Below, piece by piece: positions 2,553 to 27,015 of a stretch of 32,000 nt of DNA. This stretch comes from Nitrososphaera viennensis EN76. Lineage in GTDB: Archaea; Thermoproteota; Nitrososphaeria; Nitrososphaerales; Nitrososphaeraceae. Under the pieces are notes generated by a model. It worked only from the letters and a program-made list of their open reading frames with translations. It was not told where the DNA came from and did no database searches. Every line of letters starts with the position of its first letter. The stretch's first letter is position 1. Where the stretch lies: contig NZ_CP007536.1 in NCBI RefSeq assembly GCF_000698785.1, forward strand, positions 510,001 to 542,000. The letters run 5' to 3'. The translations under genes and the position numbers were made by a program.

Positions 2553-2560
2553 TATTTAAA
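2553..2560 (-). promoter_or_regulatory. TATA box (TTTAAATA on minus strand) for the CoA-binding gene, leaderless geometry
   Basis: Box centre is about 26 nt upstream of the GTG start at 2530. Confidence 0.45.
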
Positions 2561-2647
2561 CGCAATCAGGAATGCGTCCCCTAGGTCGAAAGATAAAGGG
2601 AAGCAGGCCAAGATCATAATAGATGATGAAATCTAGGACACGCTAGT

Positions 2648-3427: not shown

Positions 3428-3681
3428 TTCTTTTCTTTAGTGACTGTTTCTGTTATTCCTCTCTTGTATTCGAAGCCACTTCCTAGTGCTCCAATCTTAA
3501 CTCCCCATTCTCTCTTCTTTTCTACTACTTTTCGTTTGACTAGAAACTTCTTTCTTGCCTCATTTTCCATGTTGCTTCTGAACGTTCGGTATGCGTCTTG
3601 GTTCTGCAGATACCTAAGATCTGTAAGTGATGGATACTTGTTTATGGGAAAACGTCTCCCATTGTTTGTAATCCATTTCAT
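3424..3681 (-). CDS. small basic hypothetical protein
   Basis: 85-aa Lys/Arg-rich ORF. Its stop overlaps the start of the 259-aa ORF (ATGA, 3424-3427), indicating translational coupling. Confidence 0.5.
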   Translation of the reverse strand: MKWITNNGRRFPINKYPSLTDLRYLQNQDAYRTFRSNMENEARKKFLVKRKVVEKKREWGVKIGALGSGFEYKRGITETVTKEKK

Positions 3682-3740
3682 GCGGATGTTATAGAAGAAC
3701 TTGCATTAATCCATTTTCCGGTGAATCATGCTCGGATTCG

Positions 3741-5036
3741 TCATTCTAGCATTTCGCGAAGCTCTTCGTATTCTTCTTTTGTGATTTCTCCTTTCGCCAG
3801 ACGCATCTTTAGAACAAGAAGAGGGCTTTCCCTTGTCTGAACAGTTTCCGTCTTTTGGCCTGCCTGAATGTTTGACGTAGGTGCTGTCTGAGGAGAAGAC
3901 TTTTCTTGAAGCTTTACTAGCTGATTGTAGAGTTCGGCGGCGAATTCCCTGATAGCCTTTCCTCTAAATGACGTTACGCCAAACCTAGGCGATTGCGGAA
4001 TCCCATTTTCATCAACATAGGGAATTACTAGGTGATGCTCTTTGCCAGATTCATGAATAAAGCCCGTTCCTCCGAATACTCCATCTACAGGCGAACTGCC
4101 AATTCCTGAAACTTGTTGTCGTCTTGTTTTCTCCTCTATACTATAGCTTCCGACATCAATGCTTGCTAATGGAATTATGATGCTCCAGCGTTTAGAGAGA
4201 TCCTTTTCGTTTTTTGTGAATATAACGTGTTTTTCAGTAAGATAGAGCTTGCCTAATTCTTCCTTTGAGAGGAGCCCACCAGCTAGGTAGGCTTTATGAC
4301 CTCCATAGTATGAGGCGACTTCTCCCTTTAGAAGAATCTTGCCATATTGTTTGTGAAAGCAAGATACGCAGAGATTATCAGACTTGACAAAGAATGACTG
4401 TTCATTCTTCAGGCAAACAGAACAGGGCTTAGAGGGCATTTCGGGAGCTAATTCTTGAATTTCAGAAGTTGTAGTCTGCGTGCTTTCGATCTCCTTAGGC
4501 TTTTCGATAGATTTCGTCGAAAGGTTTCCTATCATCAGTCCTATAGTAGTGCTAACTTCATCAAGCTCTTTCCCTACATCAAGAATAAGAGATTCCTGTT
4601 TGTCTCCATTAAGAAAGTCGATCTGAAGATATCTACTTTCTGAAGTCTTACGGAGTCCTATTGTAATGATCATCTTCTTTAGGGAAGCTTCATTCTTAGA
4701 GACTATCTTGGAGCCTCGGATATCTTTAGATTTGAATGAAATGTAGAGATCATCTTTGCTCTTTTCTTTGTTCTTGAATCTGAAAACTACCTTGTTGATT
4801 TGGTCAAAAAGGAGAATCGACAGAAACCCATCCATCTGAACAGGGAGTTGTGAATGTCCTCCTACGTACGTCACTTCGTATTCTTTGATTCCATTCTTGA
4901 TAGTCTCGAAGCATGAATGACAGAGCTTGCCTTCGAATTCCCAGATCTCTTCAGAATCATGGCTTCTCAGACCTAGCGGTTTATGACATCTTGAACATTC
5001 CTTGTCCTTCTCACGAATGTTCTTAATGAAGCTCAA
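3741..5036 (-). CDS. duplicated zinc-ribbon plus PH/GRAM-like protein with C-terminal SHOCT motif
   Basis: 431 aa with a TTG start. There are two CxxC...CxxC ribbons (CSRCH...CHSC and CSVCL...CVSC). Each is followed by a Y.GGH beta-rich module (second copy: LYLTEKHVIFTKNEKD...). The C-terminal LAKGEITKEEYEELREMLE matches the SHOCT short C-terminal domain. Confidence 0.7.
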   Translation of the reverse strand: MSFIKNIREKDKECSRCHKPLGLRSHDSEEIWEFEGKLCHSCFETIKNGIKEYEVTYVGGHSQLPVQMDGFLSILLFDQINKVVFRFKNKEKSKDDLYISFKSKDIRGSKIVSKNEASLKKMIITIGLRKTSESRYLQIDFLNGDKQESLILDVGKELDEVSTTIGLMIGNLSTKSIEKPKEIESTQTTTSEIQELAPEMPSKPCSVCLKNEQSFFVKSDNLCVSCFHKQYGKILLKGEVASYYGGHKAYLAGGLLSKEELGKLYLTEKHVIFTKNEKDLSKRWSIIIPLASIDVGSYSIEEKTRRQQVSGIGSSPVDGVFGGTGFIHESGKEHHLVIPYVDENGIPQSPRFGVTSFRGKAIREFAAELYNQLVKLQEKSSPQTAPTSNIQAGQKTETVQTRESPLLVLKMRLAKGEITKEEYEELREMLE

Positions 5037-5063
5037 TCGGATGCCATATTATATGGCTGGTAT

Positions 5064-5189
5064 TTACCTTTTTTCTAGTTTATCGTCCCGGAACTTTGGG
5101 TCGTTGGCAGGCTGCAGTTTTGTAGTTCTTGAACGTTTCCATCTATAGATAAACGGGTAGGCCGCCAATGTGATTATTGCCGCAATCAT
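5064..5189 (-). CDS. candidate 41-aa small membrane protein (below ORF-track cutoff)
   Basis: Hand translation gives MIAAIITLAAYPFIYRWKRSRTTKLQPANDPKFRDDKLEKR: one hydrophobic helix plus a basic tail. No other support. Confidence 0.25.
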   Translation of the reverse strand: MIAAIITLAAYPFIYRWKRSRTTKLQPANDPKFRDDKLEKR

Positions 5190-5296
5190 TGTCCAACTAA
5201 CGATCTGCACAGTGGTAATAATCTGCTGGAGTTCTGCAAGAGTGACAGTATTAGTTTTGATTTTGATTTCTCTAGTCCAAAAGTGGCTTACTCCGA

Positions 5297-5668
5297 TCAG
5301 GAACCTATCATGCCGGGCAGTTTTATTGGCGCGCGGTATGCCTGCACTATCCGGATGTCAGGGTCCGCAGTCACCGTCACAGAAGTCAGGGGCGTCCCTT
5401 CAGGCGGATATACCGTTGTTTTATAACCTGGCTCCATCGTGCCGATAAATTCCGTCGCGTTGCCGCCATAGCTGACCATGACGTTTGTAAGGGCAATCTT
5501 GCCTGTGTTTGAAAGGACTACGCGGCTGTTTGTAAAAAGAGACTGCTCGTCTTTTAGCGCGTCGACGCTCAGTGAATAGTCTTGGGTAGGTACCTGCGAC
5601 GCATACATGGCCAGTACTGCGGCGACAACGATGCCACCTGCAATCGCAGCCACAAAGGCGAGCCGCAT
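5297..5668 (-). CDS. membrane-anchored or secreted hypothetical protein
   Basis: 123 aa. N-terminal hydrophobic anchor (RLAFVAAIAGGIVVAAVLAMY) followed by a beta-rich Thr/Val-rich domain. Confidence 0.6.
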   Translation of the reverse strand: MRLAFVAAIAGGIVVAAVLAMYASQVPTQDYSLSVDALKDEQSLFTNSRVVLSNTGKIALTNVMVSYGGNATEFIGTMEPGYKTTVYPPEGTPLTSVTVTADPDIRIVQAYRAPIKLPGMIGS

Positions 5669-5705
5669 CTGAGAAGATTTGCTTTATTTAATATTTAAGC
5701 GATCA

Positions 5706-7220
5706 TCATTCGCCTTTTATCTGGGCGCGCGTCTTGAAGACCGGCTTTATCCCGAGCGGCGCATAGTTGCCAGTCGAGCAGGTAAAGCACAGCTCTTCTT
5801 CCGGCATGCCAATTGCGCTTGCAAGGTTTGCAGTGTCGTTGTACGCGACATAGTCTGCGCCAATCACCCTTGCGACCTTGCCCGCCACCTTTTCGTTTGC
5901 CTGCTCTTCTGCGCCGTGCTGGTACGCAATAAGTTCCTCCTGTGACGGAAAGTCGATTCCGGCGTAGCACGGGTAGCGTATGGGCGGGTACGTGACTACG
6001 AGGCTTATCCGCCTTGCGCCTGCCGCGCGCAGCGTGCTTATTATCGACGCAGAGCTGGTGCCGCGGACAATGCTGTCGTCCACGACCACCACGTGCTTGC
6101 CCTCAATGACTTCCCGTATCGGGATTATGCCCTTGTTTATCTCGACCCTGTCGTTCTGGTACGGCTCGATGAAACTGCGCATCGAGCCCTTCTTGCTGTA
6201 CCTGTCCTTCAGCAGGCCCTCCTCAAACGGCAGGCCGGATTCCAGCGCATAGCCAAGCGCCGCGGGCCTTGCCGAGTCAGGGACCGGCACAACCACGTCC
6301 GCGTCCTGTATCGGGAATTTCTTGGCAAGGAACTGGCCTATCTTTTTCCTTGCCGCGTAGACGTTTATCCCCTCCATGATGCTTGACGGGTGCGCAAAGT
6401 ATGTGTATTCAAACGCGCAGTGGGCGTGCGGCGTTTCCGTCGCAAACTGCTGGGACTCGACCCCTGCCTTGCCCATCTTGACCAGTTCCCCCGGCTCGAC
6501 GTCGCGGACAAGCTGCGCCCCGACTGCGGCAAGCGCGCACGACTCCGACGCCACCATGTAGGTGCCAGTTTCCTTGTGAAAGCCAAGGACGAGCGGCCTG
6601 AATCCCCGCGTGTCGCGTGCCGCATACACTGAACCTTCGTCGGTGAGAAACGTAAAGCAGAACGAGCCGACCATCTCGCTTTTCAAAATAGACATCGCAG
6701 ACGCCATGTCGTCCTTTTCGGCGATGTGCATCACCAGGCGCTGGGCGGCAACCAGCGTGTCGCTCATGGTCTGCGGGGTGAACGTGCAGCCGCCCACCAT
6801 GCCTGAAAGCTGCTCCACGTTTGCTATGGTGCCGTTGTGGGCTATGCACAGGTCCTTGACCTTGAGGGGCTGGGCGTTTTCCAGGTTGCTCTTGCCAAAA
6901 GTGGAATAGCGCACGTGGCCGATGGCCGCGCTTGACTTGTATTTGCGCACAATAGCCTGAAAATCAGGCGCGGCCTGCGATACAAGGCCGAGCCTCTTGA
7001 ACGGGGGCTTGTTCGGGACGGCAATGCCCCACGCCTCCTGGCCGCGGTGCTGCAGCGCGCGCAGCATGTCTATGGCAAACGGTATGACATTGTGTCCGGC
7101 AAGCGAAAAGATGCCTACTACGCCGCAGTTTTCATGTACCAATGTTGTTCTTTGTCCCCCAAGCACAAGCAGGCCGAGCAAAAGAAGCCATGCCCATGAC
7201 CGGCAGTAGATAAACGCCAT
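5706..7220 (-). CDS. purF: amidophosphoribosyltransferase (glutamine PRPP amidotransferase)
   Basis: Has the Ntn nucleophile context ENCGVVGIF and the PRPP-binding loop VVVVDDSIVRGTS. The maximal ORF has 31 codons before the Cys. An in-frame TTG at 7142 would give MVHENC and is the more likely start. Confidence 0.95.
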   Translation of the reverse strand: MAFIYCRSWAWLLLLGLLVLGGQRTTLVHENCGVVGIFSLAGHNVIPFAIDMLRALQHRGQEAWGIAVPNKPPFKRLGLVSQAAPDFQAIVRKYKSSAAIGHVRYSTFGKSNLENAQPLKVKDLCIAHNGTIANVEQLSGMVGGCTFTPQTMSDTLVAAQRLVMHIAEKDDMASAMSILKSEMVGSFCFTFLTDEGSVYAARDTRGFRPLVLGFHKETGTYMVASESCALAAVGAQLVRDVEPGELVKMGKAGVESQQFATETPHAHCAFEYTYFAHPSSIMEGINVYAARKKIGQFLAKKFPIQDADVVVPVPDSARPAALGYALESGLPFEEGLLKDRYSKKGSMRSFIEPYQNDRVEINKGIIPIREVIEGKHVVVVDDSIVRGTSSASIISTLRAAGARRISLVVTYPPIRYPCYAGIDFPSQEELIAYQHGAEEQANEKVAGKVARVIGADYVAYNDTANLASAIGMPEEELCFTCSTGNYAPLGIKPVFKTRAQIKGE

Positions 7221-7262
7221 GCGTTAAAAAACGTATCTTGCTTTCTCTCCTCCTCCTCATCA

Positions 7263-9470
7263 TCATCCCATTATCTTCCCAAGCGATCCAAAGGCGCCTT
7301 CCAGTTTTGACAATGGTAGTGAGATCCGAACCTTCTTGCCCTGGGCAAACTCGGCCTTGCCACGCATAGACTTGCCGATCTTGGCAAACTTGACTCCCTC
7401 TGACTGCAACAGCTGGGCAACCTGCTCGGGCCTGGTCGTCCCTACAAGGTAGCGCGAGTGCGACTCTGAAAACAAGAGATCGTCAAGCCTAGTGCAGGTG
7501 CTTGGGACAGAGTCCAGTTGCACGCGAAAACCAGTGTTTCCTGCAATCGCCATCTCGGCAAGAGCCACCGCAAGGCCGCCCTTGCTGCAGTCATGGGCGC
7601 ACGACACCAGGCCGTTTCTTATCAGTTTCAGGACGGCAGAGCCGTTTGCCCTGTCGGTTGCAAGGTCGACTGCCGGAAGCAGGCCTCCGGTTATGCCGTG
7701 CACGTATTCATAGTATTCCGAGCCTCCCATCTCCGGGCGCGTCTCGCCGATTATGAATACGGACTGGCCGGGGCCAAGCGCCGACTTTGTTATCCATTTT
7801 TCGTCGTCGATGAGGCCAATCGTGCCCATCACGGGCGACGGCTTGATGGGCCCCTTGGCCGTCTCGTTGTAAAAGCTGACCTTGCCTCCAACTACCGGAA
7901 TTTCCATAAAGTTGCAATAGTCGACAATGGCGTTTACCGCTTGCGAAAAGGTCCAGAAGATCTCCGGGTCCTCCGGGCTTCCAAACTGCAGGTGGTCGAC
8001 CACTCCCGCCGGCTCGGCGCCGGTGCAGATGATGTTTCGGCACCCTTCCGACAGGCAGCCAAGCGTCCCCTGGTACGGGTCGAGGTAGCAGTGCTTCGAG
8101 TTGCCGTCCAGTTTTACTGCGGCAAATTTCCCGTTGTCAAGGCGCATCACGGCCGCGTCGGCCGCGCCCGGCTTTGCAACGGTGCGCACGCCCACCTCGT
8201 GGTCGTACTGCTGGTAGACCCACCTCTTGCTTGCTATCGTCGGGTTTGAGAGGAGCGCAAGCAGCGTCTTTCCCAGGATTGGCGGCACCTTCTTTGGAGC
8301 GCGCACCTTTTTGAGCCGGTCGAGGTACGCCGGCCTCCGTGCGGCCCTGTCTGCAAGGGGCGCATGCGCGACGAGGCTTGAAGGCATGCTTGCAACCACA
8401 GAGTCATTGTGCGTTATTACAAGGTCCTGGTGCCCTTCTGCCTTGCCTAGTATCGAGTACCTTATCTCGTACTTGTCAAGGATGGACTGCAAGCCCGGCA
8501 GCTTTTCAGAGTCGGTGACGTAGAGCATGCGCTCCTGCGACTCGGATATCATCAATTCTGCCGGCGTCATGCCGGCCTCCCTTGCGTTGACCTCGGACAG
8601 CTCGACCTTAAAGCCGCGGCCGAGGTTGTCAGACGTCTCTGACAAACAGCACGAAAGCCCGCCTCCGCCGAGGTCCTTTATCGCCTTGACGCACCCCTGC
8701 TGCACGGCCTCCATCGTCGCTTCCAGCAGCAGTTTCTCAAGGAACGGGTCGGGTATCTGCACCGCCGAGCGGTTCTCGGCCTCCAGCGCGCGCGACGCAA
8801 ACGACGCGCCGTGTATCCCGTCCCTGCCGGTGGAGCCTCCTGCAAGCACGATATAGTCGCCGACTTCGGCGCGGTTTGAAATGACGTCCTCTTTTTTGCC
8901 GTGGCCTATAGACGCGACGTCTACAAGGCAGTAATCCTCAAACGACGGGTCAAACTCGATCTCGCCTCCGACCGTAGGTATTCCGATGCAGTTCCCATAG
9001 TCTGCGATGCCCTTGACCACGTTCTTGAACAGCCATTTTGACTTTGCCGTCGCCGACGCTGTTGCTGCCGACTTTTTGCTCTTGTTGTTGTTGCCGCCGT
9101 CTATTGGCGCAAAGCGCAGCGCGTCAAGCACCGCTATCGGGCGCGTGCCCATCGACATGATGTCGCGTATCACCCCTCCGACTCCTGTTGCAGCACCGCC
9201 AAAGGGCTCTACCGCCGACGGGTGGTTGTGGCTTTCAATGTGCACGGTGATGACATAGCCGTCGCCGACGTCGAGCACGCCGGCGTCATAGCCAGGGCCG
9301 ACAAGGACGCGCTTGCCTTTTGTCGGGAGGAGGCGCAGGAACTTTTTGGACGACTTGTACGAGCAGTGCTCAGACCATTCTGCCCCTACGATGTCCTGCT
9401 CGACCTCGTTTGCCTTCCTCTTTAGCTTGCTTTCAAGGTAGGCTAGTTCTTGCTCTGTAAGGACTCCCAT
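7263..9470 (-). CDS. purL: phosphoribosylformylglycinamidine synthase subunit PurL (FGAM synthase II)
   Basis: 735 aa. Contains typical small-PurL blocks (EWSEHCSYKSS, HNHPS, GGVIRD, duplicated AIR-synthase-like halves). Confidence 0.95.
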   Translation of the reverse strand: MGVLTEQELAYLESKLKRKANEVEQDIVGAEWSEHCSYKSSKKFLRLLPTKGKRVLVGPGYDAGVLDVGDGYVITVHIESHNHPSAVEPFGGAATGVGGVIRDIMSMGTRPIAVLDALRFAPIDGGNNNKSKKSAATASATAKSKWLFKNVVKGIADYGNCIGIPTVGGEIEFDPSFEDYCLVDVASIGHGKKEDVISNRAEVGDYIVLAGGSTGRDGIHGASFASRALEAENRSAVQIPDPFLEKLLLEATMEAVQQGCVKAIKDLGGGGLSCCLSETSDNLGRGFKVELSEVNAREAGMTPAELMISESQERMLYVTDSEKLPGLQSILDKYEIRYSILGKAEGHQDLVITHNDSVVASMPSSLVAHAPLADRAARRPAYLDRLKKVRAPKKVPPILGKTLLALLSNPTIASKRWVYQQYDHEVGVRTVAKPGAADAAVMRLDNGKFAAVKLDGNSKHCYLDPYQGTLGCLSEGCRNIICTGAEPAGVVDHLQFGSPEDPEIFWTFSQAVNAIVDYCNFMEIPVVGGKVSFYNETAKGPIKPSPVMGTIGLIDDEKWITKSALGPGQSVFIIGETRPEMGGSEYYEYVHGITGGLLPAVDLATDRANGSAVLKLIRNGLVSCAHDCSKGGLAVALAEMAIAGNTGFRVQLDSVPSTCTRLDDLLFSESHSRYLVGTTRPEQVAQLLQSEGVKFAKIGKSMRGKAEFAQGKKVRISLPLSKLEGAFGSLGKIMG

Positions 9471-18273: not shown

Positions 18274-19518
18274 TTGGAACAGCAGCGAAAGGTGCGCGCA
18301 GAGGTAAAGCTGCCTCTTATACTCATACACACCCCGTTTGGCCTGGACTTCTTTGACAGGGTAGCCAGGGCTCCCGGCGCAAAGGCATGGGCCAGCATAA
18401 ACACGTACTTGATGCCCGTCATAACCGTCCTTGCGATTTTCCTCATAGTAGGCTCGCTTGCGGTGCTCTTTTCAAACGCCGACGCAAGAACCAGCATCCG
18501 CGGGGTAGGACCGACGGCAAACCTGCTCATACCCGGCCTCAACCCGTACCTGCCCATAGTGGAGGGGTGGGTGGCGCTTGTGGTGACCATCATAATCCAC
18601 GAGGCAGGCCACGGCATCATCGCCAGGGTCTACAACATCCGCGTGGACTCGACCGGGCTCGTGCTGTTCCTCGGGATACCGATAGGCGCATTTGTCAATA
18701 TTGAAAGAGATGAGCTTGCCAAGGCGACCCTCAAGCAAAAGAGCGCGGTGCTGACGGCAGGCCCCCTCAACAACATGATACTTGCAGGCGTCTCGCTCCT
18801 TGCGCTTTTCCTGGTGATGTCGACGCTCACCCCGCTGCCGCCGGCTCCCGGCGAGCCCCAGTTCGGAGTGGCTGTCATCAGCGTCAACCCCGGCTCGCTT
18901 GCCCAGTCCATCGGGCTTCCGCAGGGCGCCGTCATACAGGAGGTGGCAGGCCAGGAGGTCAAGAAGAATGAAGATCTAGGTCCCCTCCTTCGCGCCAACC
19001 TTGGCCAGACCATCGACATTACATGGGTCGAGGGGTCCGGCGGCGACGGCAACACCGCTTCTTTTGCGACAGTGACAAAGTCAGTGACACTTCCCGACGC
19101 CGTAGAGCCCGGCAAGGGCACGCTTGGCATTACAGTGGCGACTATAGATACCACTGGCGCAGTCCTTGAAAGGTACAAGGGCGCATTCAGCTCCAACCCA
19201 CTTGCCATACTCCTCCCGCCAACTATTCAGGAAGGAATCGTGCCATACTCTCAGCTGATGACTCCAAAGTACGAGTCGTCCATCGGCTCTGTGTGGTCGC
19301 CTCTGGCAAACATGCTGTTCTGGCTGTGGTTTGTCAACTTTAACGTCGGCATATTCAACGCGCTGCCGATAGGCCCGCTCGACGGAGGCCAGCTGTACAA
19401 CTCGCTCATTGAAAAGAAGATCAAGTCGCAGATAATGGCCAAGAACGCCACCACGATGCTCACGATACTGATGGCGGTAATCGTGGCGGCGGCGATACTG
19501 CTCCCGTACGTGATATAG
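18274..19518 (+). CDS. site-2 protease family (M50) membrane metalloprotease with PDZ domain
   Basis: HEAGHGIIAR (HExxH) in a TM helix, a PDZ-like insert (ISVNPGSLAQSIGLPQGAVIQEVAGQEV) and a C-terminal NALPIGPLDGGQL motif. Confidence 0.9.
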   Translation: MEQQRKVRAEVKLPLILIHTPFGLDFFDRVARAPGAKAWASINTYLMPVITVLAIFLIVGSLAVLFSNADARTSIRGVGPTANLLIPGLNPYLPIVEGWVALVVTIIIHEAGHGIIARVYNIRVDSTGLVLFLGIPIGAFVNIERDELAKATLKQKSAVLTAGPLNNMILAGVSLLALFLVMSTLTPLPPAPGEPQFGVAVISVNPGSLAQSIGLPQGAVIQEVAGQEVKKNEDLGPLLRANLGQTIDITWVEGSGGDGNTASFATVTKSVTLPDAVEPGKGTLGITVATIDTTGAVLERYKGAFSSNPLAILLPPTIQEGIVPYSQLMTPKYESSIGSVWSPLANMLFWLWFVNFNVGIFNALPIGPLDGGQLYNSLIEKKIKSQIMAKNATTMLTILMAVIVAAAILLPYVI

Positions 19519-19527
19519 AGACGTACG

Positions 19528-19816
19528 GAGAAGCAGCTGCAGGGATTAACCCGGATATTGAGAGAACAATGTGGAATCCCTAACGAGGCAGGCAGCGATT
19601 CATGCAAAGGATGAGCTGGTTAGCCCGGTTGTAAAAGGTCTAGGCATAAGAATCCACAAGGTAACAATCCTGAATGAAAAGGATTGTATCAAGGTCAAGC
19701 AGAAAAGCTGGCTTGACAAAAAGGATTGGGTAGAAATTCACGACATTCTAAGAGTACAAGGGTTTAGTTTGCTTGCAAATGGAAAGGATAGCTGTTGGAT
19801 AAGACATATTCAATAG
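19528..19816 (+). pseudogene. truncated, frameshifted 3' fragment of a transposase gene related to 22351-23823
   Basis: 19574-19816 aligns codon-for-codon with 23581-23823 (81-aa ORF versus the last 80 aa of the 490-aa transposase). Weaker homology continues upstream to about 19528 (AAGIN...) in a different frame and is closed by a stop. Everything 5' of that is absent. Confidence 0.7.
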
Positions 19817-19863
19817 CAGAGGAGACTACAAAAATCCAAAATTAACTGCTGATACGCTCCTCT

Positions 19864-20451
19864 TCATCGAACATATTTAGGAGAAACCTTGATCATCAGT
19901 TCACCGCAACAGGGGCATTTGAAAGCCATCCTGTCTCCCCAATAGCTAAAGACAGTCATGCAATTCGGACACTTGCACATCTTATCACGATATACAAGTT
20001 GTGGATCTCTTATTATTTGTGGCAAAAAGTCTTTCTTTGCAGTAGGAGCCCGAACGTCGCTAATGTAATCAGCGATCTCAAAGTCTCGTCGAGACGAAAG
20101 TGGGTGTGGAAAATAGTGATTTAGATAGGGGACGGCAAAATCAACTCCTTCCTCGTTAAAGACATAGACAGGTTTTTGTGGAATTGAGGCAGCGGCAACG
20201 CCAATCTCGAACGCAACCCAATTCCTGGTATGCATTATTGAAGCCACATTTTTTGTCAGGATTACAAAAAGCGCCTTTGATTTGGTTATCTCTTTCCTTA
20301 TCCATTTCCAGTTGGGTTCTTTATTCCTGTGCCATCCCTCATATTCCATAGCCACTGCCTTAACACCAGTATCTTTGAAAGCGTTGTGAAAGAACTTCAT
20401 GATCTCTGTATCTGAAGCACTATGAGAGATGAAAATGGTTTTTGCTGACAT
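19864..20451 (-). CDS. TIR-like domain protein (DUF1863/ThsB-like) with C-terminal zinc ribbon
   Basis: 195 aa. The N-terminal TIFISHSASD strand, KSKALFVILTKNV, then NWVAFEIGVAAA...KPVYVF reproduce the prokaryotic TIR-like layout including the conserved Glu. The C-terminus has CKCPNC...CPCC. Call made by eye. Confidence 0.65.
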   Translation of the reverse strand: MSAKTIFISHSASDTEIMKFFHNAFKDTGVKAVAMEYEGWHRNKEPNWKWIRKEITKSKALFVILTKNVASIMHTRNWVAFEIGVAAASIPQKPVYVFNEEGVDFAVPYLNHYFPHPLSSRRDFEIADYISDVRAPTAKKDFLPQIIRDPQLVYRDKMCKCPNCMTVFSYWGDRMAFKCPCCGELMIKVSPKYVR

Positions 20452-20470
20452 TTACTCTATGTCTAGAAAG

Positions 20471-20554
20471 AGTCCTGTCGAGATCAAGGGCGATTCCATC
20501 GTTTTTGCTGGCTGTCGAGAGTCGGGCGATTTTGTCGAAGGCAGGGCGATAAGT
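20471..20554. repeat. left copy of an about 84-bp imperfect inverted repeat (partner at 24705-24788)
   Basis: Hand alignment with the reverse complement of 24705-24788 gives 78 of 84 positions identical. The outer boundary at 20471 is abrupt. It contains three copies of TGTCGARR-N3-4-GGGCGATW starting at 20476, 20513 and 20533. Confidence 0.85.
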
Positions 20555-21027
20555 CAGATGTCAGAAGTTGAGGATAATGCTTTCTTGCGGCCAAGTATCA
20601 GGAAAAACCCGACCCAGCCGACCAACGTCAGAGCAAGGAACAAAATCCCGCCTGTTTCTGACGCATAAAAGTCATAATAGAAAGCCTCCAGGAAGCTCTT
20701 AGGAAATTCGGCTACTGCTTGGCCTAGACAGGCTATCAGAAACCCCTTGTAGAAGGGTTTGGTTTTGAAACGCGTGTAGACTACTAGCGGCGATAACGCA
20801 CCAATCGTGCCAAAGAAACCGCCGAAGAAGCGCATGAGTCGGACATCGCTCTTAGAATTGAGGCAAATGGCGTCAATTCCTGTATTAGTGGGCGGTCCGA
20901 CTTTTGCTGTACCGCCGTATGTCTCACAAATTACCTTGTGCCCTATCTCATGGAAATATCCAATTGGCAAGACCGTTATGGCAAATCCCAAGACTGCAAA
21001 CATTGCGACTCGAATATCAAAACGCAA
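20554..21027 (-). CDS. membrane-embedded HExxH protein (DUF3267-like putative zincin)
   Basis: 157 aa with 3-4 hydrophobic helices. HEIGH follows directly after the first helix (FAITVLPIGYFHEIGHKV). TTG start. The stop codon overlaps the inner edge of the left inverted repeat. Confidence 0.6.
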   Translation of the reverse strand: MRFDIRVAMFAVLGFAITVLPIGYFHEIGHKVICETYGGTAKVGPPTNTGIDAICLNSKSDVRLMRFFGGFFGTIGALSPLVVYTRFKTKPFYKGFLIACLGQAVAEFPKSFLEAFYYDFYASETGGILFLALTLVGWVGFFLILGRKKALSSTSDI

Positions 21028-21070
21028 GTTATCTAGAAGACTTTTAGCTATCCTTTAACCATATTGAAGA

Positions 21071-21184
21071 ATGCAGCCGGGCGGCTATTATTATGAGTTC
21101 ATGCTGATAGCAACCTTTCTTGGTATAGGATTTGGCCTAGGGTATTCGTTCATTCATTTGCTGAGAAAGTATCGAAAAAGCTAA
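21071..21184 (+). CDS. candidate 37-aa single-helix membrane peptide (below ORF-track cutoff)
   Basis: Hand translation gives MQPGGYYYEFMLIATFLGIGFGLGYSFIHLLRKYRKS. An AT-rich box lies about 26 nt upstream. Weak support. Confidence 0.2.
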   Translation: MQPGGYYYEFMLIATFLGIGFGLGYSFIHLLRKYRKS

Positions 21185-21340
21185 AAAGTAGCTTGTACTA
21201 ATTTTATCTTGGACACCCAAAGGAAAAAAGGACTCGCCGATGACCCTACCAATGGGATATGGCGGTAGGTAGTGCCATCGGCCTTGTCTTTTGGGTGTCT
21301 GCTCTTTTGGAACAGACAGATTGTACGGCACTATCGGTGT

Positions 21341-21517
21341 TTAGACTAGTCGACGGCCAAGGAGGCCGACTCCTACGCCTATGGCGATAAACAATGCTCC
21401 AAGCCAGTAGACATTGCCAAAATTCCCTATGAATGTGGCTTTGTCTGCCAGTGTCGCTCCGAGCATCGTCATTGCTCCCGTTCCCGACAGTGTTGCTATA
21501 GCTTTTTTTATAGCCAT
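21341..21517 (-). CDS. candidate 58-aa small membrane protein (below ORF-track cutoff)
   Basis: Hand translation gives MAIKKAIATLSGTGAMTMLGATLADKATFIGNFGNVYWLGALFIAIGVGVGLLGRRLV. A TTTAAATA box at 21542-21549 (minus strand) sits 25-32 nt upstream of the ATG. This reading is preferred over the Arg/Ser-rich 96-aa ORF in another frame. Confidence 0.4.
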   Translation of the reverse strand: MAIKKAIATLSGTGAMTMLGATLADKATFIGNFGNVYWLGALFIAIGVGVGLLGRRLV

Positions 21518-21576
21518 GCGCGCGTCCTACCGTCAAGGCAGTATTTAAAGTTTAAATATCTTTACTTTGTCTTCAC

Positions 21577-22248
21577 TTAGTTCCGCTCGAACAGGTCATC
21601 CCAATGGTCAACAACATCCTTGATTATCTTATCCCTATTATCGATCAGCGTTTGTTTTATTTTTGGGTCTTTCTCTTCCCTGATGCGCATATCCAACGCT
21701 TTTGGAAAATCGACTTCTATGACGATTCTGATTTTGCCATCTGACATCACAGCCTTTTTCTTTATCATTTTTGCTACGAGCTCGGCAATTTCTTCCAACA
21801 GCTTAGGGTCTATGTCCATCTTGGTAGGCAGCCACAAAGTAACAGAAGACCGTAAAGCTTGGCCGACCGCGTTTGCAAACGCTCCAAGATCCTTTTTCAC
21901 GTAACCTCTAACAACTAATGCTGGTACTTGTGCAGCTAGCTTCTCTTCTAACGTGTATTTCTTTCCAAGCGACATCAATAGTACATTGATTGCTTCGAGA
22001 TGACGCTTGCGCGCATCATCGACAGGGCGAATATTTGGAACAAGCTCAACGAACTGTTTTCCTGCTTCTGTTGTCTCGTAAAATCCTTGATCCGTCTTGG
22101 CTATCAGTTCTTTACCTTGCAAATCGTTGAGGTGCACCATCAACGTTGGCTCTGTTTTACCAGTTATTTTCACAAGTTCGCTCCAGGACTTTGGGATTAC
22201 GCATGACTCTAGGATAGTCGCCTTAGTTTCCCCGATTTTTTGCGACAT
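21577..22248 (-). CDS. winged-helix transcriptional regulator with uncharacterised C-terminal domain
   Basis: N-terminal TILESCVIPKSWSELVKITGKTEPTLMVHLNDLQGKELIAKTDQGFYETTEAG is a wHTH. The start is placed at the second ATG (22248) because a TATAAGTA box (22272-22279, minus strand) lies about 24-31 nt upstream. The maximal ORF begins at 22269. Confidence 0.65.
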   Translation of the reverse strand: MSQKIGETKATILESCVIPKSWSELVKITGKTEPTLMVHLNDLQGKELIAKTDQGFYETTEAGKQFVELVPNIRPVDDARKRHLEAINVLLMSLGKKYTLEEKLAAQVPALVVRGYVKKDLGAFANAVGQALRSSVTLWLPTKMDIDPKLLEEIAELVAKMIKKKAVMSDGKIRIVIEVDFPKALDMRIREEKDPKIKQTLIDNRDKIIKDVVDHWDDLFERN

Positions 22249-22282
22249 CTGCCAAATACACTTCCTCATCCTACTTATACCG

Positions 22283-22347
22283 TACTAAGTATAAGAACTT
22301 TGCTTTGTCTTAGCAAAGTTTATTAAGATACTTAGTATATACTAAGT
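22283..22347. promoter_or_regulatory. operator-like palindromes in the divergent regulator/transposase promoter region
   Basis: A perfect 18-bp palindrome ACTTAGTATATACTAAGT (22330-22347) sits between a TTTATTAAG box (22319-22327) and the transposase ATG. An extra TACTAAGT half-site is at 22283-22290. A perfect 9-bp inverted repeat AACTTTGCT-N7-AGCAAAGTT is at 22296-22320. Confidence 0.5.
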
Positions 22348-22350
22348 TGC

Positions 22351-23823
22351 ATGGAACCCACTGCCCACCAACCCGATGCACGCGAAATGAAAGGTCTTGC
22401 TATGGCAAAGGATGTCAGCCAGAAAAAGTCCGATGTTGCCATACAGCTTCTAAATGAAATGACCTACAAGGTGAGGTCGCAGTCAGACATCAGCAAATGG
22501 TACATGGTCGTTCGGACAGAGGGCGCATGGACGTGCGACTGTCCAGATTCTACCTATCGCCATGTAACCTGCAAGCACATTCATGCGGTACTGTTCTCGA
22601 AGGCATTTAGAAAGAAGGTGTATGAGGATACGCTATTCCAGACACCGGTAAACCAGCACATCATCAACGAATCAAACGAGCTTGGCAAGATTGTTTGCCA
22701 ACGCTGCGCAAGCGGCAACTACGTAAAATGCTCGGTTCGCCACACGAAAAAAGCGGGCGACATTCAACGTTATCAGTGCAAAGATTGTGGATACAGATTC
22801 ATTGTCAACCCAGCATTTGAACATGCAAAAGTAACTGCTAGGATAATATCGGCGGCAATCGACCTCTATTTCAAGGGTGTTTCGCTCAGGAAAATAGAGG
22901 ATCATGTTTTGCAGTCTTTCAACGTCAAGGTGGACCATTCGAGCGTAGCAAATTGGATTCGCCGCTTTAACAAGGTAGTCCAGCCTTACGTGGATTCATT
23001 CGTGCCCGTGCAGGTTGGCGGCGTTTACCATGTTGATGAAATGCTAGTACATGTAAGAAAGGAGCATAACGACGCTACTATGAACCTGAATAACAAAGAA
23101 AACCATACCTTTAGGAAATTCGACAACCACTATAGCTGGCTATGGAACTTGATGGATTCAAGTACTAGATTTTGGATATGCTCCAAGATTACCCAAAAGC
23201 GTACGGGCGATGTGGCTCGCTCTGTCTTTAAGGAAATGAAGCAACGCGCCCCGCTGCCACGGGCGATAGTGCATGATGGCCTGCGCTCGTACGATGAAGC
23301 ATACACCCGCGAGTTGTACACGAGGGAAAAGCCACAAATCCAGAATGTGAGAAGCGTCGGCTCTAACGAAAAGGGCTTGAACCCTAAAGTCGAGCGCCTT
23401 AACGGAACGGTAAGAGACCGCGAAAGCGTAATGCGCGGCATGGACACGGCGGAAAGCGCGCAGGAGCTCATGGACGCAATGCAGATTCATTACAATTTCA
23501 TTCGAGGCAATCAGGCCATAGGGGGTCAGACACCGGCTGAAGCAGCAGGCATTAACCTCAACCTGAAAGAAAACAAGACGGAATCTTTGATGAGGCAGGC
23601 GGCGATTCATGCAAAGGATGAGCTAGTTAGCCCGGTCGTCAAAGGACTTGGCATACGCATTCACAAGGTAACAATCCTGAATGAAAAGGACTGCTTAAAG
23701 GTCAAGCAGAAGGGATGGCTTGACAAAAAGGACTGGGTAGAGATTCATGATATACTACGTGTACAAGGTTTCAACTGGTTAGCGAACGGCAAAGATAGCT
23801 GTTGGCTCAAATTGATTGTTTGA
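22351..23823 (+). CDS. DDE transposase (IS6/IS240-like, tentative) with N-terminal SWIM zinc finger and zinc ribbon plus an about 80-aa C-terminal extension
   Basis: SWIM motif WTCDCPDSTYRHVTCKHIH and ribbon CQRC...CKDCGYRF. DDE-type blocks are YHVDEMLV, WLWNLMDSSTRFW...KR, AIVHDGLRSYDEAY and KVERLNGTVRDRESVMRGM. The C-terminal module is duplicated at 19574-19816. Confidence 0.8.
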   Translation: MEPTAHQPDAREMKGLAMAKDVSQKKSDVAIQLLNEMTYKVRSQSDISKWYMVVRTEGAWTCDCPDSTYRHVTCKHIHAVLFSKAFRKKVYEDTLFQTPVNQHIINESNELGKIVCQRCASGNYVKCSVRHTKKAGDIQRYQCKDCGYRFIVNPAFEHAKVTARIISAAIDLYFKGVSLRKIEDHVLQSFNVKVDHSSVANWIRRFNKVVQPYVDSFVPVQVGGVYHVDEMLVHVRKEHNDATMNLNNKENHTFRKFDNHYSWLWNLMDSSTRFWICSKITQKRTGDVARSVFKEMKQRAPLPRAIVHDGLRSYDEAYTRELYTREKPQIQNVRSVGSNEKGLNPKVERLNGTVRDRESVMRGMDTAESAQELMDAMQIHYNFIRGNQAIGGQTPAEAAGINLNLKENKTESLMRQAAIHAKDELVSPVVKGLGIRIHKVTILNEKDCLKVKQKGWLDKKDWVEIHDILRVQGFNWLANGKDSCWLKLIV

Positions 23824-24671
23824 TGAAAAAGGTTATTGGGATGCCAGATTTTACCAATTCGATGAATCTTGGTAAAATCTTCGATGAGATTTCCAAGAAG
23901 ATGGTTGTCGATATAAATGAAACAAGAAAAGCGATTGACAAGCACCCGGGTTTGAGAGGAGAGTCTTTCGAGGAAGTAGTCCGTGAATTCCTTGAAAAAT
24001 ATCTACCAAAAGCCTTTGCAATCTCAAAGGGATTCATAGTTGATTCCGATGGCAAACAGTCGAAGCAATTAGATGTAATAATTTCAGATGCGATGAATAG
24101 TCCTATCTTTTATCAAAAGGGCGAAAACCGGGTATTGCCTGTTGAGTGTGTTTTTGCAGTAATAGAAGTCAAAGCACGATTAGATTCTGTCGAGCTTGAC
24201 AAGGCAGTTGATAATATGCTAAGCGTACGTAATTTAACCAAGAAAGCCTTTCGTACGGTGCCATCGTATCAGCCCCTCTTTCGTTCCATAGGTTTGTATG
24301 GAAAGGAAGATTGGATAGGCTACCCAATCAATTACTTCGTTTTTGCTTTTGATTCCATCGATTTGAAGCATCTAACAAAATTATTAGACAGGAAACATAA
24401 GGCGCATAAATTGCCCGAATGGTCACGAATAGATGGGATATATGTGTTAGGAAAAGGTATGGTGACCAATTATATCGAATATGAGTATGATGACAACCGT
24501 ATACCTCCATTGCACATAATCAGGACTTTGCCAGAGCCAAAATCAAAGGTCACATCAATAAAATCGCGGCGATCATTACTCCTGTTTTATCAGGATCTCA
24601 TGGACTGTCTTTCAATGGCAGAAGTGAAAAACTTCATTTTGCCTGACTATACTTACCGACTACGCTTCTGA
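23823..24671 (+). CDS. DUF6602-like PD-(D/E)xK nuclease-fold protein
   Basis: GLRGESFEEVVREFLEKYLP...GFIVDSDGKQSKQLDVIISD...PVECVFAVIEVKARL gives the D...E-x-K restriction-endonuclease-like core. Its ATG overlaps the transposase TGA (TGATG). The maximal ORF starts at a TTG at 23802. Confidence 0.7.
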   Translation: MKKVIGMPDFTNSMNLGKIFDEISKKMVVDINETRKAIDKHPGLRGESFEEVVREFLEKYLPKAFAISKGFIVDSDGKQSKQLDVIISDAMNSPIFYQKGENRVLPVECVFAVIEVKARLDSVELDKAVDNMLSVRNLTKKAFRTVPSYQPLFRSIGLYGKEDWIGYPINYFVFAFDSIDLKHLTKLLDRKHKAHKLPEWSRIDGIYVLGKGMVTNYIEYEYDDNRIPPLHIIRTLPEPKSKVTSIKSRRSLLLFYQDLMDCLSMAEVKNFILPDYTYRLRF

Positions 24672-24704
24672 AGGAATCAATAGGTAAATTTTCGGTAAAC
24701 CATA

Positions 24705-24788
24705 ACTCATCGCCCTACCTTCGACAAAATCGCCCGACTCTCGACAGCGAGGAAAATCGAAGGAATCGCCCTTGATCTCGACAGGACT
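24705..24788. repeat. right copy of the about 84-bp inverted repeat (partner at 20471-20554)
   Basis: See the left copy. The outer boundary at 24788 is abrupt. Flanking sequences are unrelated. Confidence 0.85.
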
Positions 24789-24909
24789 GGAGAGCAGTAT
24801 GCTTTTATATCTGCAAGTGGGAGTTACGCTTGACTTATAGCTGGCTTGTGCCGAGGCATTTTCTACAGCACAATACTTGGCATAGCCGGACGAAAAATGA
24901 GGCAAGAAC

Positions 24910-27015
24910 TTGGAAAAAAACGAAATAGAAGGATTTGAAGAAGAAAGGCAGACTCAGACCCAGCGCAGGCCCCGGCCGGAGCAGATGCAGAGGCGGCCCG
25001 CGCAAGATGTAGCTGCCGCCCACGTGACCAAGGTCACGACGGAAAGCGAGGACGCTGTCGCAAAGATAATACTGCAGTCGATACCGGCTGACTCGCAGGT
25101 AACAAACGTCAGGTTCGAGGGCCCCAACATTGCGCTGTACACGAAAAACCCCAAGTTTGCGCTCACCGAGTTGACCTACTACCTTTCTTCGCTTTCAAAG
25201 ACCCTGAAAAAGAGGTTCATAATACGCACGGACCCGTCGGTGCGCCTGCCAGAAGACGCCACGCGGCAGGCAGTGGTGAAGCTCCTGCCAAAGGACGTGC
25301 AGGTGTCGGCGGTGTTTTGCGACGACGCTACGGGCGAAGTGGTCCTTGAGGTAAGCAAGCCGGAGGCAATCGACCCGGCCATGATAGTAGAGATAGCCAA
25401 GTCCACGGGCTGGATTGCCCACACGAGGCGCTCGCCCCACATACCGTCTACCAGCATCAACACCATACATTCGACGCTCAAAAGTTCTGCAAAAGAACGC
25501 TCGGACTTTCTCCAAAAGCTCGGAAGGAGGCTGTTCCGGGGCTCACTAGTGGTCGGCAACGTGCCGGAGAACGGCGGCAACGGCAGGAGCGAGCAGGCGT
25601 CCGACGTCGTCTTGCCTCCAAGGCCCCAGTGGTCGCAGAACCGCGAAGAAGTGATGCTGTTCTGCCTCGGCGGGGTCAAGCAGGTGGGGCGCTCGTGCTT
25701 TATCGTAGTCACGCCGGAAAGCAAGGTCATGCTTGACTGCGGCATAAACCCCGGCGAGATGTCCGGCCTTGACGCATACCCGCGAATCGACTGGCTCAAC
25801 TTTAACCTTGACGAGCTTGACGCAGTAGTCATCAGCCACGCCCACATCGACCACCAGGGGTTCCTGCCGGCGCTCTTCAAGTACGGCTACCGCGGGCCGG
25901 TGTACTGCACCGAGCCGACGCTGCCGCTCATGACGCTCCTGCAGATGGACTCGGTCAAGATCGCAAACTCTAACGGCACGTACCTGCCGTACGAGGCAAG
26001 GGACGTCCACGAAGTCATAAAGCACACGATAACGCTCCCGTACGGCAAGCCGACAGACATTTCTCCAGACATCACGGTCACTTTGAACAACGCCGGCCAC
26101 ATCATGGGCAGCGCGACGGTGCACCTGAACATCTCTGGCGCGCACAACATACTCTACTCCGGCGACTACAAGTTTGCACGGACGCAGTTGCTTGACAGCG
26201 CGGTGGCGACGTACCCGAGGGTCGAGACATTGATCACGGAAAGCACGTACGGCAACTCGTCTGACATCATGCCCGACCAGGCATTCGTGTACAGGACGTT
26301 TTCAGAGTCGATAAACAAGGTGCTGTCGGAGGGAGGCAAGGTCCTCATACCGGTGCCGGCAGTCGGCAGGGCGCAGGAGATAATGCTGGTGATGGCAAAG
26401 GAGATGAGCGAAGGCAGGCTCGTCGAGTCGCCAATATACATCGAGGGCATGATATCCGAGGCAAGCGCGATACACATGTCGTACGCGCACTACCTTGGAG
26501 CAGACGTGCGCAGGTCTGTCTCGCAGGGCATAAACCCGTTCACGTCCGAATACTTCACGGTCATCAGCGGGGGCAAGCGCGAAGAGGCCATAAACGACCA
26601 GAACCCGGCGATAATCATGGCGACGTCCGGCATGCTCGAAGGCGGCCCGTCCGTCGAATATTTCAAGGAGCTTGCGCCAAGCCCCAAGAACAAGATAATC
26701 TTTGTCTCGTACCAGATAAACGGCACGCTTGGCCGGCGCGTCCTTGACGGCAACGTCTCTGAGGTCAGCATGATGGACAAGTCCGGGAAGGTCAAGGTCG
26801 TTCCAGTCAGGTGCCAGACGCAGAAAATCGACGGCTTTTCCGGCCACAGCGACTTTAACCAGATAATGAACTTTGTAGCCAAGATCAAGCCAAAGCGCGT
26901 TCTTGTGAACCACGGCGAGAGGACCAAGTCAGAAAACGTCGCAAGCGCGATATATTCGCGGCTAAAGATACGTTCCGGCGTCCCGGACAACCGCGAGATT
27001 GTCCGCCTGCGGTAA
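24910..27015 (+). CDS. archaeal CPSF1-type ribonuclease (two KH domains, metallo-beta-lactamase, beta-CASP); aCPSF1/FttA-like
   Basis: N-terminal KH-like region (NVRFEGPNIALYTKNP), the HAHIDHQG HxHxDH motif, and downstream beta-CASP blocks (ESTYG, GRAQE, SGHSD). TTG start; the exact start is uncertain. Confidence 0.93.
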   Translation: MEKNEIEGFEEERQTQTQRRPRPEQMQRRPAQDVAAAHVTKVTTESEDAVAKIILQSIPADSQVTNVRFEGPNIALYTKNPKFALTELTYYLSSLSKTLKKRFIIRTDPSVRLPEDATRQAVVKLLPKDVQVSAVFCDDATGEVVLEVSKPEAIDPAMIVEIAKSTGWIAHTRRSPHIPSTSINTIHSTLKSSAKERSDFLQKLGRRLFRGSLVVGNVPENGGNGRSEQASDVVLPPRPQWSQNREEVMLFCLGGVKQVGRSCFIVVTPESKVMLDCGINPGEMSGLDAYPRIDWLNFNLDELDAVVISHAHIDHQGFLPALFKYGYRGPVYCTEPTLPLMTLLQMDSVKIANSNGTYLPYEARDVHEVIKHTITLPYGKPTDISPDITVTLNNAGHIMGSATVHLNISGAHNILYSGDYKFARTQLLDSAVATYPRVETLITESTYGNSSDIMPDQAFVYRTFSESINKVLSEGGKVLIPVPAVGRAQEIMLVMAKEMSEGRLVESPIYIEGMISEASAIHMSYAHYLGADVRRSVSQGINPFTSEYFTVISGGKREEAINDQNPAIIMATSGMLEGGPSVEYFKELAPSPKNKIIFVSYQINGTLGRRVLDGNVSEVSMMDKSGKVKVVPVRCQTQKIDGFSGHSDFNQIMNFVAKIKPKRVLVNHGERTKSENVASAIYSRLKIRSGVPDNREIVRLR

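Follow-up and report, generated by a model that had tools for sequence, protein, structure and literature searches.

Insertion sequences (ISs) of the IS6/IS26 type are the textbook minimal elements: they have a single gene, and their 14-bp ends hold one binding site each. Several spaced transposase sites per end, the terminal one being distinct, are known from Mu, Tn7, Tn552, Tn402/Tn5053 and the inverted repeat/direct repeat (IR-DR) ends of Sleeping Beauty, and this arrangement is thought to enforce a higher-order transpososome. All of these use other transposase families, and Mu, Tn7 and Tn402 require an ATPase partner and make 5-bp duplications. IS30 (IS30 family) and IS911 (IS3 family) insert preferentially beside their own or similar inverted repeats, with 2-3-bp spacers and circle or dimer intermediates. 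Here, we analysed a 4,318-bp element of the soil archaeon Nitrososphaera viennensis EN76, which lies between 84-bp inverted arms at positions 20471-24788 of a 32,000-nt stretch of DNA (contig NZ_CP007536.1, positions 510,001 to 542,000 of the forward strand; hereafter the window). Positions are those of the whole window, arm positions are counted from the outer tip, and L-numbers denote comparison loci.

The named IS closest to the element is ISDsp3, an IS6-family member of Dehalococcoides sp. BAV1 (ISfinder). ISDsp3 measures 1456 bp, its repeats are 28/36 bp long and it duplicates 8 bp of target. Its 319-aa transposase lacks an intact zinc finger, and no other IS6 member is on record with a passenger gene. 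The published inverted-repeat consensus of the IS6 family consists of a GG tip, cTGTt and caaa in terminal repeats of 14-20 bp, and the duplication is 8 bp. The transposase open reading frame (ORF) of the window was listed by Krupovic et al. 2019 (Table S3; CP007536 532351-533823, 1473 nt, family IS6, 48.58% identity to ISDsp3), together with ten further ISDsp3-like ORFs in the same genome. The ISs were treated there as one- or two-gene units, and ends and cargo were not described. This ORF-level listing was the sole prior record found; no description was found of the 84-bp three-site ends, their phasing, the cargo or the tip-to-tip junctions reported below. Likewise, the searchable literature gave no description of multi-site IS6 ends, of SWIM-containing IS6 transposases or of thaumarchaeal cargo transposons.

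As detailed below, the two arms are very probably the ends of a single 4,318-bp cargo transposon (a 'transporter IS') driven by an IS6-superfamily DDE transposase whose closest named relative is that of ISDsp3. The repeated sites within the arms are predicted to be bound by this transposase, and the element would have inserted beside an older end, after which a deletion followed.

Ends of the element and its transposase

An earlier note, made from this DNA alone, had described 84-bp inverted repeats matching at 78 of 84 positions, with uninterrupted identical runs of 27 and 31 nt. A repeat finder and a recount gave the same figures. The arms 20471-20554 and 24705-24788 are 93% complementary and 4150 nt apart, and the runner-up inverted repeat within 19000-26500 is 26 nt long (73%). 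The mismatches are at positions 28, 32, 37, 40, 72 and 81 from the tip. The sharp outer edges and the polarity expected of termini were also borne out, since the flanks outside the tips match at 5 of 30 positions and arm identity collapses past position 84. The bipartite motif TGTCGAR-N4/5-GGGCGAT was found with zero mismatches three times in each arm, starting at 20476, 20513 and 20533 on the + strand, as the note had it, and at 24765, 24729 and 24709 on the - strand. None of the six arm mismatches falls within a half-site (TGTCGAR or GGGCGAT). The parts of the ends and the transposase gene are as follows.

20471..20554, + strand: left terminal inverted repeat (IRL); 5-nt tip AGTCC, then three bipartite sites; identity from exactly 20471
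20476..20494, + strand: site L1 (terminal), TGTCGAG-ATCAA-GGGCGAT, 5-nt spacer; starts at position 6, as in every family arm examined
20513..20530, + strand: site L2, TGTCGAG-AGTC-GGGCGAT, 4-nt spacer; starts at position 43
20533..20550, + strand: site L3, TGTCGAA-GGCA-GGGCGAT; starts at position 63, 20 bp past L2
24705..24788, - strand: right terminal inverted repeat (IRR); R1 at 24765-24783, R2 at 24729-24746, R3 at 24709-24726; tip at 24788
24789..24796, + strand: 8 bp abutting the right tip, GGAGAGCA; likely the surviving copy of a target duplication
22351..23823, + strand: transposase, 490 aa, 1473-nt ORF

As the note had stated, no target-site duplication is present at the window element. 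The left flank reads ...TCTAGAAAG and the right flank GGAGAGCA..., and the 8 nt compared at the two tips are CTAGAAAG (left) and GGAGAGCA (right). The 84-nt arm was also compared by BLAST with about 79-84 related loci and matched none except the window itself, so the end sequence is specific to this element. A scan of metagenomes with the pattern CTGTCGAGN{4,5}GGGCGATT hit at least 120 loci; none of the matches listed has an arm or a site cluster, and they are thus chance matches.

Two ORFs run inward through the arms, at 20429-20668 (+, 79 aa) and 24660-24905 (-, 81 aa), and their peptides resemble each other (SPVEIKGDS...CRESGDFVEGRA). Public annotations call one of the two as a gene, but both most likely arise as artefacts of the inverted repeat.

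The transposase consists, in order, of a SWIM zinc finger, a four-cysteine IS1-like zinc ribbon, a helix-turn-helix (HTH), an IS6-type DDE core and a C-terminal domain of ~80 aa. In an alignment of 28 sequences, D229, D309 and E348 of the core and the CxC...CxH of the SWIM finger are invariant, and R355 stands seven residues past the glutamate. The Pfam profile DDE_Tnp_IS240 (PF13610) matched with 39.2 bits, above its gathering threshold of 27, and SWIM matched with 21.7 bits (cut-off 19.6). When eight IS models were compared, the NCBIfam IS6 model (NF033587) was the best (93.6 bits, E=1.3e-26). In a tblastn search against plasmids, the matches listed were IS6-family transposases, except one that is unannotated; the best annotated ones were long zinc-finger clostridial IS6 members such as ISCpe7, which aligned over residues 116-406 with identities of 24-28% and a lowest E of 7e-21. 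A sequence search of solved structures gave nothing significant. By descent the element groups with ISDsp3 and the long IS6 branch, which Harmer and Hall would keep apart from IS6/IS26 proper.

The C-terminal domain (residues ~410-490, 23568-23823) is absent from the ~390-400-aa members, which make up most of the comparison set. In an AlphaFold2 model it is the only well-predicted part besides the N-terminal fingers, with a predicted local distance difference test (pLDDT) score of 81-86. It survives as a fragment beside the M50 or FttA gene in two species (window 19533-19816; L088 7174-7480).

Related elements and the design of their ends

A word-index search found 1164 homologues of the transposase. 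When 1.84 billion cluster representatives were searched in full with HMMER, 204 clusters (50% identity) matched at E<=1e-30, and 1037 did so at E<=1e-10. The family loci are mostly from Nitrososphaeria; other hosts are Bathyarchaeia, Nanoarchaeia, Woesearchaeota, Micrarchaeota, Thermoplasmatota and Halobacteriales, and a few bacterial metagenome-assembled genomes. In 17 loci, and in L212 and L214, two loci that were looked up from the closest proteins, inverted repeats of 45-84 nt lie on either side of the transposase gene and delimit 2.4-8.8 kb. These relatives carry one to six passenger ORFs, and the transposase gene is the sole gene common to all of the first 18 delimited elements. The cargo is variable and much of it is defence-like: a fused restriction-modification enzyme, AAA_15/AAA_21 ATPases, SIR2_2, a ParB_N-DUF488 protein with a Panacea-domain protein, an N6/N4 methylase with ThaI endonuclease, proteasome-like proteins and, in the window element, a NucC-like nuclease.

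Of the 19 complete comparison elements, 15 are flanked by a perfect 8-bp target duplication, and in one more 7 of the 8 positions match. Twelve of the 15 were called by script, those of L015 (TGATTTCA) and L022 (AAATTTCA) were recognised by eye in the script's output, and that of L212 (CTAGCGAT) was established separately. The claim of the earlier note that the repeats are transposon termini is upheld: about 20 other loci have homologous transposases set within the same design, and 15 of these loci show perfect duplications.

All arms of the family share one plan. In each, the outermost 5 nt are the tip, (A/G)G(T/C)(T/C)C, and site 1 begins at position 6 with the adjoining TG. Many relatives have GGTTCTGTTGCAA as their first 13 nt, and this sequence is the first of two or three repeated sites within their 45-84-bp arms. 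The GGTTCTGTTGCAA of the family relatives is close to the corresponding IS26 sequence, GGCACTGTTGCAAA. Since GGTTCTGTTGCAA fits the IS6 consensus, the repeated unit holds the canonical core of an IS6 repeat and, 4-6 nt inward of it, a second half-site. The left half of the site is the canonical core CTGTTGCAA in relatives and has diverged to CTGTCGAG in the window. The half-site pairs include TGTCGAG/GGGCGAT, TGTTGCA/GGGAG, TGTTGCA/CGTGG, TGCTTCG/GGGAG and TGGTGGG/GACTGAT; within an element one site sequence is used, and the site sequences vary between elements.

The spacing of the sites is regular as well. In three-site arms, site 2 starts at position 34 or 43-44 and site 3 at 54-55 or 63-65. 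The distance from site 2 to site 3 is always 20-21 bp, about two helical turns, and that from site 1 to site 2 falls into two classes, 28 and 37-38 bp, which differ by about one turn. In every type checked, the half-site spacer is 1 nt longer in the terminal site than in the inner ones. Three-site ends were seen in the window, L001, L004, L009, L013, L212, L214 and L216, which belong to the long-transposase clade (about 480-500 aa), and the elements with shorter transposases mostly have two sites. Sites that are uniform within each element and different between elements, together with fixed phasing, are as expected of co-evolving protein-DNA recognition in an ordered complex, from which we infer binding itself. 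Each 18-19-bp bipartite sub-repeat is most likely one transposase-binding site.

A mechanism can be proposed on this basis. One IS6-type transposase would recognise each bipartite site, the half-sites presumably contacting two DNA-binding modules. The outermost site, 6 nt from the end, would set the DDE catalytic centre on the 5-nt tip, and the inner sites, spaced 20 bp from each other and set 37 bp inward of site 1, would load further protomers. A multi-subunit synaptic complex would then assemble on a complete pair of ends only, and strand transfer into cuts staggered by 8 bp would give the 8-bp duplication. The chemistry may be replicative, with an IS26-like cointegrate, or cut-and-paste.

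Compared with the described systems, the element shares some features with each. It resembles ISDsp3 in having a longer-than-usual repeat and a passenger gene, and the 8-bp duplication of ISDsp3 recurs in the relatives of the window element. However, ISDsp3 is bacterial and short, whereas the window element is archaeal, with a 490-aa transposase that has the SWIM finger, the zinc ribbon and the C-terminal domain; it also has 84-bp ends with three phased sites and four passenger genes (the ends of ISDsp3 were compared by repeat length). With IS26 and canonical IS6 it shares the DDE core followed by a basic residue, the 8-bp duplication seen in its relatives, the GG tip/cTGTt/caaa core in the family relatives, and a tendency to accumulate beside resident copies. 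IS26 differs in its size of about 820 bp, its single gene, its 14-bp repeats and its one binding site per end. IS26 itself moves through cointegrates, and it also differs in its targeted conservative reaction, which shares one IS copy and yields no tip-to-tip junctions with an 8-bp spacer. The long clostridial IS6 members (ISCpe7, ISCbo1, ISTet2; clades VII/VIII = h/i) likewise have an N-terminal zinc finger, HTH and DDE and make 8-bp duplications, but they are 1.2-1.8 kb long with 12-25-bp repeats, no cargo and no SWIM, and repeated subterminal sites have not been reported for them.

The likeness to the ends of Mu, Tn7 and Tn552 is a functional analogy in design, and no membership is claimed; the window element has an IS6-type enzyme and no ATPase partner. 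Six tip-to-tip junctions of the family (see below) resemble the insertions of IS30 and IS911; here, however, the spacer equals the 8-bp duplication, and ends of different types often abut.

When the element was held against the IS6 definition, it fell outside on four counts: size and gene number (4318 bp and five genes, against a single gene in 0.7-0.9 kb, or up to 1.8 kb in the long clades), repeat length (84-bp arms opening with AGTCCTGTCGAG, against 14-20 bp) and the NCBIfam cut-off. It agreed with the definition in the Pfam profile, the repeat core and, at the level of the family though not in the window copy, the 8-bp duplication. The earlier view that this is not a simple IS calls for a qualification: the element derives from an IS family, in an enlarged build that carries cargo, and the repeated unit holds the canonical IS6 inverted-repeat core.

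In L216, a 5991-bp element has a further arm 25 nt inward of its left end (2002-2085); this inner arm is of the left-end type and differs in sequence type. It may have been captured as a solo end, or it may belong to a hybrid element.

Proposed history of the M50-FttA locus

The window element lies between the genes for an M50 peptidase and FttA (aCPSF1), and the remains of an older related element lie against its left tip.

19533..19816, + strand: relic of an older related element, a pseudogene of a transposase C-terminus, 82% identical to 23568-23805
19864..20451, - strand: TIR-domain (ThsB-like) gene, which the older relic carried as cargo; its end is 19 nt away from the IRL tip

The homology of the relic to the transposase runs on out of frame upstream of its 81-aa ORF. 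The differences between the relic and the C-terminus of the transposase are distributed 10:7:32 over the codon positions, and this bias indicates that the relic comes from a distinct, once functional element. The TIR gene scored 27.9 bits with Pfam TIR_2 (cut-off 28), matched CAP12-PCTIR_TIR at the cut-off and gave 1.1e-6 with PADLOC ThsB. Homologues of the TIR gene were followed in search of the relic's original right end: L217 and L218 do not differ from the window, and L219 and L220 (51% identity) have no family ends nearby.

The TIR gene itself is intact and has a C-terminal CxxC...CxxC zinc-ribbon-like motif; no ThsA-like partner was seen nearby. Its homologues occur at 42-52% identity in other Nitrososphaeraceae contigs.

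The same interval was compared among relatives. In N. evergladensis (L087), a near-identical contig (L090) and another Nitrososphaera species (L088), it holds SnoaL, methyltransferase and small genes and, upstream of FttA, a solo right end of another type, TGCTTCR-N-GGGAG (L087 7782-7875, the same in L090, L088 7800-7878). The reverse complement of this end reads AGTTCTGCTTCG-N5-GGGAGTT... and has two or three sites. Its tip abuts G(G/A)AGAGCAGTATGC at the exact nucleotide where the right tip of the window element abuts GGAGAGCAGTATGC. The 8 bp at the right junction are GGAGAGCA in one sister lineage, identical to the window, and GAAGAGCA in N. evergladensis. A left end matching the solo right ends was sought in N. 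evergladensis and L088, and none was found. N. evergladensis has a second solo end about 620 nt further left (L087 ~7170-7256), and L088 keeps a transposase C-terminal fragment upstream of its solo end, with a junction 'M50 stop - GAAGCAGCTGCAGGGAT...' that it has in common with the window. In L091, M50 and FttA are 415 nt apart with no family end between them, and homology resumes 4 nt right of the tip position. The solo ends and relics across these relatives indicate that the M50-FttA interval is an old, repeatedly used insertion site.

Junctions of two tips were found elsewhere in the family too. The pattern CAGAAC(T/C)-N~8-(A/G)GTTCTG occurs at six sites in 811 kb of family loci (L001 2398-2453; L010 ~2902; L019 ~7036; L050 ~4808; L216 1889-1911 and 7889-7909), apart from one extra match that seems due to chance; it occurs nowhere in 739 kb of control loci, and the shuffle mean was 1.0. 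In three of these loci, L019, L050 and L216, the spacer is identical to the 8-bp target duplication of the adjoining element. The 5991-bp element of L216, with duplication GAATAGCA, sits in what was evidently a tip-8 nt-tip junction before. The ends that abut often differ in sequence type, so the junctions are not those of circles or dimers of a single element. The tip-to-tip junctions suggest insertion into the 8 bp abutting a resident end.

For the window, the following course would fit. The element would have entered GGAGAGCA beside the old right end, between the M50 peptidase and FttA genes, and such an insertion would reproduce the shared right junction. A later deletion, at least about 90 bp long and reaching up to the new left tip, would have removed the old end and the left duplicate and left the transposase fragment and TIR gene of the older element against the new left tip. 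It may have arisen by transposase-mediated adjacent deletion or through instability of the near-palindromic junction.

Four other explanations were considered. The earlier note had seen in the ends either those of a Tn7/Mu-like complex transposon or an iteron array, and neither identification is supported. A complex transposon of the Tn7/Mu/Tn552/Tn402 kind, with an rve-type transposase and an AAA+ target-selection ATPase, would account for the several subterminal sites and distinct terminal site of each end, and the transposase does have a weak rve_3 match. It is nevertheless very improbable: profile searches of the element's ORFs found no TnsC/MuB-like ATPase, second transposition gene or Rep gene or domain between the repeats, where the genes other than the conserved IS6-type DDE transposase are non-conserved cargo, the best transposase models and annotated homologues are IS6, and the relatives duplicate 8 bp and not 5. 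That the arms, short and internally repetitive as they are, could be a dispersed repeat like a miniature inverted-repeat transposable element (MITE) or a repetitive extragenic palindrome (REP), or an iteron array, flanking genes by chance, is hardly tenable. The motif occurs otherwise only once in the 32 kb at up to two mismatches, at 14845 and with two (shuffles gave 0.2-0.3 matches per window), and the loci and metagenome matches examined held no dispersed copies of the repeat without a transposase. The homologous elements, for their part, carry equivalent repeats together with target duplications. Against iterons stand the inversion of the two clusters, 4.15 kb apart on either side of a transposase gene, and the want of a Rep-like domain.

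The two remaining explanations accept the ends as IS6-like. The copy could be a fossil, immobile since its capture in a rearranged island, with its arms kept alike by recency or gene conversion. This would agree with the missing duplication, with the exact transposase being confined to one locus in the N. viennensis assemblies and contigs (CP103305 and CP104300 among the assemblies), with the end type being found nowhere else in the collections searched, and with an old, much-rearranged insertion site. Yet the 490-aa ORF is unbroken and retains every residue that is invariant in the family (DDE, R355, both zinc motifs), the arms are 93% identical with every mismatch outside the half-sites, and the mostly third-position differences from the relic point to selection on the lineage, so a fossil appears unlikely. 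Homologous replacement of the intergenic segment through the M50 and FttA flanks, or recombination between elements, might also have made the junctions. At 84-90% identity between species, the flanking genes could sustain recombination, the segment between them is wholly different among relatives, and IS6-family cointegrate resolution relies on host recombination. Even so, two end types at the identical nucleotide would still need one targeted or coincident insertion, independent loci have insertions into the 8 bp beside resident tips, and the M50-side relic junction shared with L088 means that the left part was not replaced. We consider replacement improbable, a little more so than a fossil.

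Several points weigh against a cargo transposon of the IS6 superfamily that inserted here and then suffered a deletion. The score of 93.6 bits is below the NCBIfam curated IS6 equivalog cut-off of 125. Archaeal and long 'IS6' elements are placed outside the IS6/IS26 family proper by Harmer and Hall. The AlphaFold2 model, built on the 28-sequence alignment, is poor (mean pLDDT 56.9, predicted template modelling score 0.25, catalytic core below 50). L214, the other complete element with TGTCGA-type three-site ends (414-9238, 8825 bp, 84-nt arms 98.8% identical; its cargo is an AAA_15 ATPase and the methylase/ThaI pair), is also without a target duplication; the TGTCGA-type subtype, to which both it and the window element belong, may behave differently. 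No second copy or empty site for the exact element type was found among the family loci, the metagenome loci (at least 120) and the N. viennensis assemblies; an exact-protein look-up gave no second insertion site, the remaining matches being short contigs broken at or inside the element. Given no duplication and no second copy or empty site, recent mobility of the window copy is conjectural. Finally, insertion followed by deletion takes two steps of reasoning, and exchange of the whole interval by homologous recombination competes with it.

A wider proposal is put forward tentatively. The ISDsp3-like SWIM-finger archaeal transposons of the IS6 superfamily may form an undescribed clade that combines a phased, multi-site, Mu-like transpososome without an ATPase, mainly defence cargo (NucC-like, TIR, restriction-modification, SIR2, AAA_15/21, Panacea), and homing to the 8 bp abutting resident tips, so that defence islands would accrete at old sites such as the M50-FttA spacer. 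If true, the preference for end-adjacent sites would be a simple targeting rule that helps to explain how archaeal defence islands accrete at fixed chromosomal sites. The IS6-type enzyme is apparently able to drive cargo transposons of 2.4-8.8 kb with two or three phased predicted sites per end, and the family is a vehicle of defence-type genes in ammonia-oxidising and other archaea. It also offers a natural series for how multi-site ends evolve from one site and what they gain for transpososome assembly.

Passenger genes and other features of the window

Between the arms lie the transposase gene and four passenger genes. G+C falls from about 58% to 42-47% across roughly 19500-24800. Three ORFs read leftward (20554-21027, 21341-21517 and 21577-22269) and two rightward (22351-23823 and 23802-24671), with an 81-nt divergent spacer between the two groups; the outward-reading terminal genes and central divergent promoter described before agree with this map.

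20554..21027, - strand: passenger, 157-aa predicted membrane protein with a HEIGH (HExxH) motif, from the translation
21341..21517, - strand: passenger, 58-aa hydrophobic ORF, preferred by public gene calls over the overlapping 96-aa ORF 21246-21536
21577..22269, - strand: passenger or regulator, 230-aa winged-helix protein, divergent from the transposase gene
22270..22350, no strand: divergent intergenic region with palindromes TACTAAGTAT / ATACTTAGTATATACTAAGT and CTTTGCT-N7-AGCAAAG
23802..24671, + strand: passenger, 289-aa DUF6602 / NucC-like PD-(D/E)xK nuclease, from profile matches

The nuclease matched Pfam DUF6602 (E=2.9e-31) and, in PADLOC, PD_DExK (6.9e-41) and NucC (1.3e-27). The 157-aa HEIGH protein had no Pfam, NCBIfam or PADLOC match and no homologue in the other 17 delimited elements, and the 58-aa ORF had no family match in NCBIfam or PADLOC. 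The 230-aa protein was matched weakly, below cut-off, by the HTH_45, HTH_5 and Csa3-type winged-helix models. It is not conserved in related elements; its same-position counterparts in close relatives are small MazE/AbrB-like genes. The palindromes of 22270-22350 are candidate operator and promoter sequences, and the winged-helix gene may regulate the divergent promoter. As a binder of the sub-repeats, this protein was set aside as unlikely, given its absence from related elements.

Comparable palindromes (TATTGATATCAATA) stand upstream of the transposase gene in L001 and L006. An ORF of 47-51 aa lies divergently upstream of the transposase gene in L212 (3044-3199), L214 (5789-5932) and L216 (5762-5917); it is MazE/AbrB-like in L212 and L216, and the L214 copy has no Pfam match on record.

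Proteasome-like cargo recurs in the family, at L009 2564-3370 (-), L018 118-963, L022 49-996 and L050 81-914 (coordinates within the elements). The proteins of L009, L018 and L022 cluster by BLASTP, and that of L009 has a Pfam Proteasome match; the L050 protein is proteasome-like by eye only.

A second low-G+C island (39-43%) was seen at ~2500-5100 of the window, beside purine-biosynthesis genes. It contains a HEPN-like protein at 2648-3427 (-), a weak match, and a 431-aa GRAM and SHOCT protein at 3741-5036 (-).

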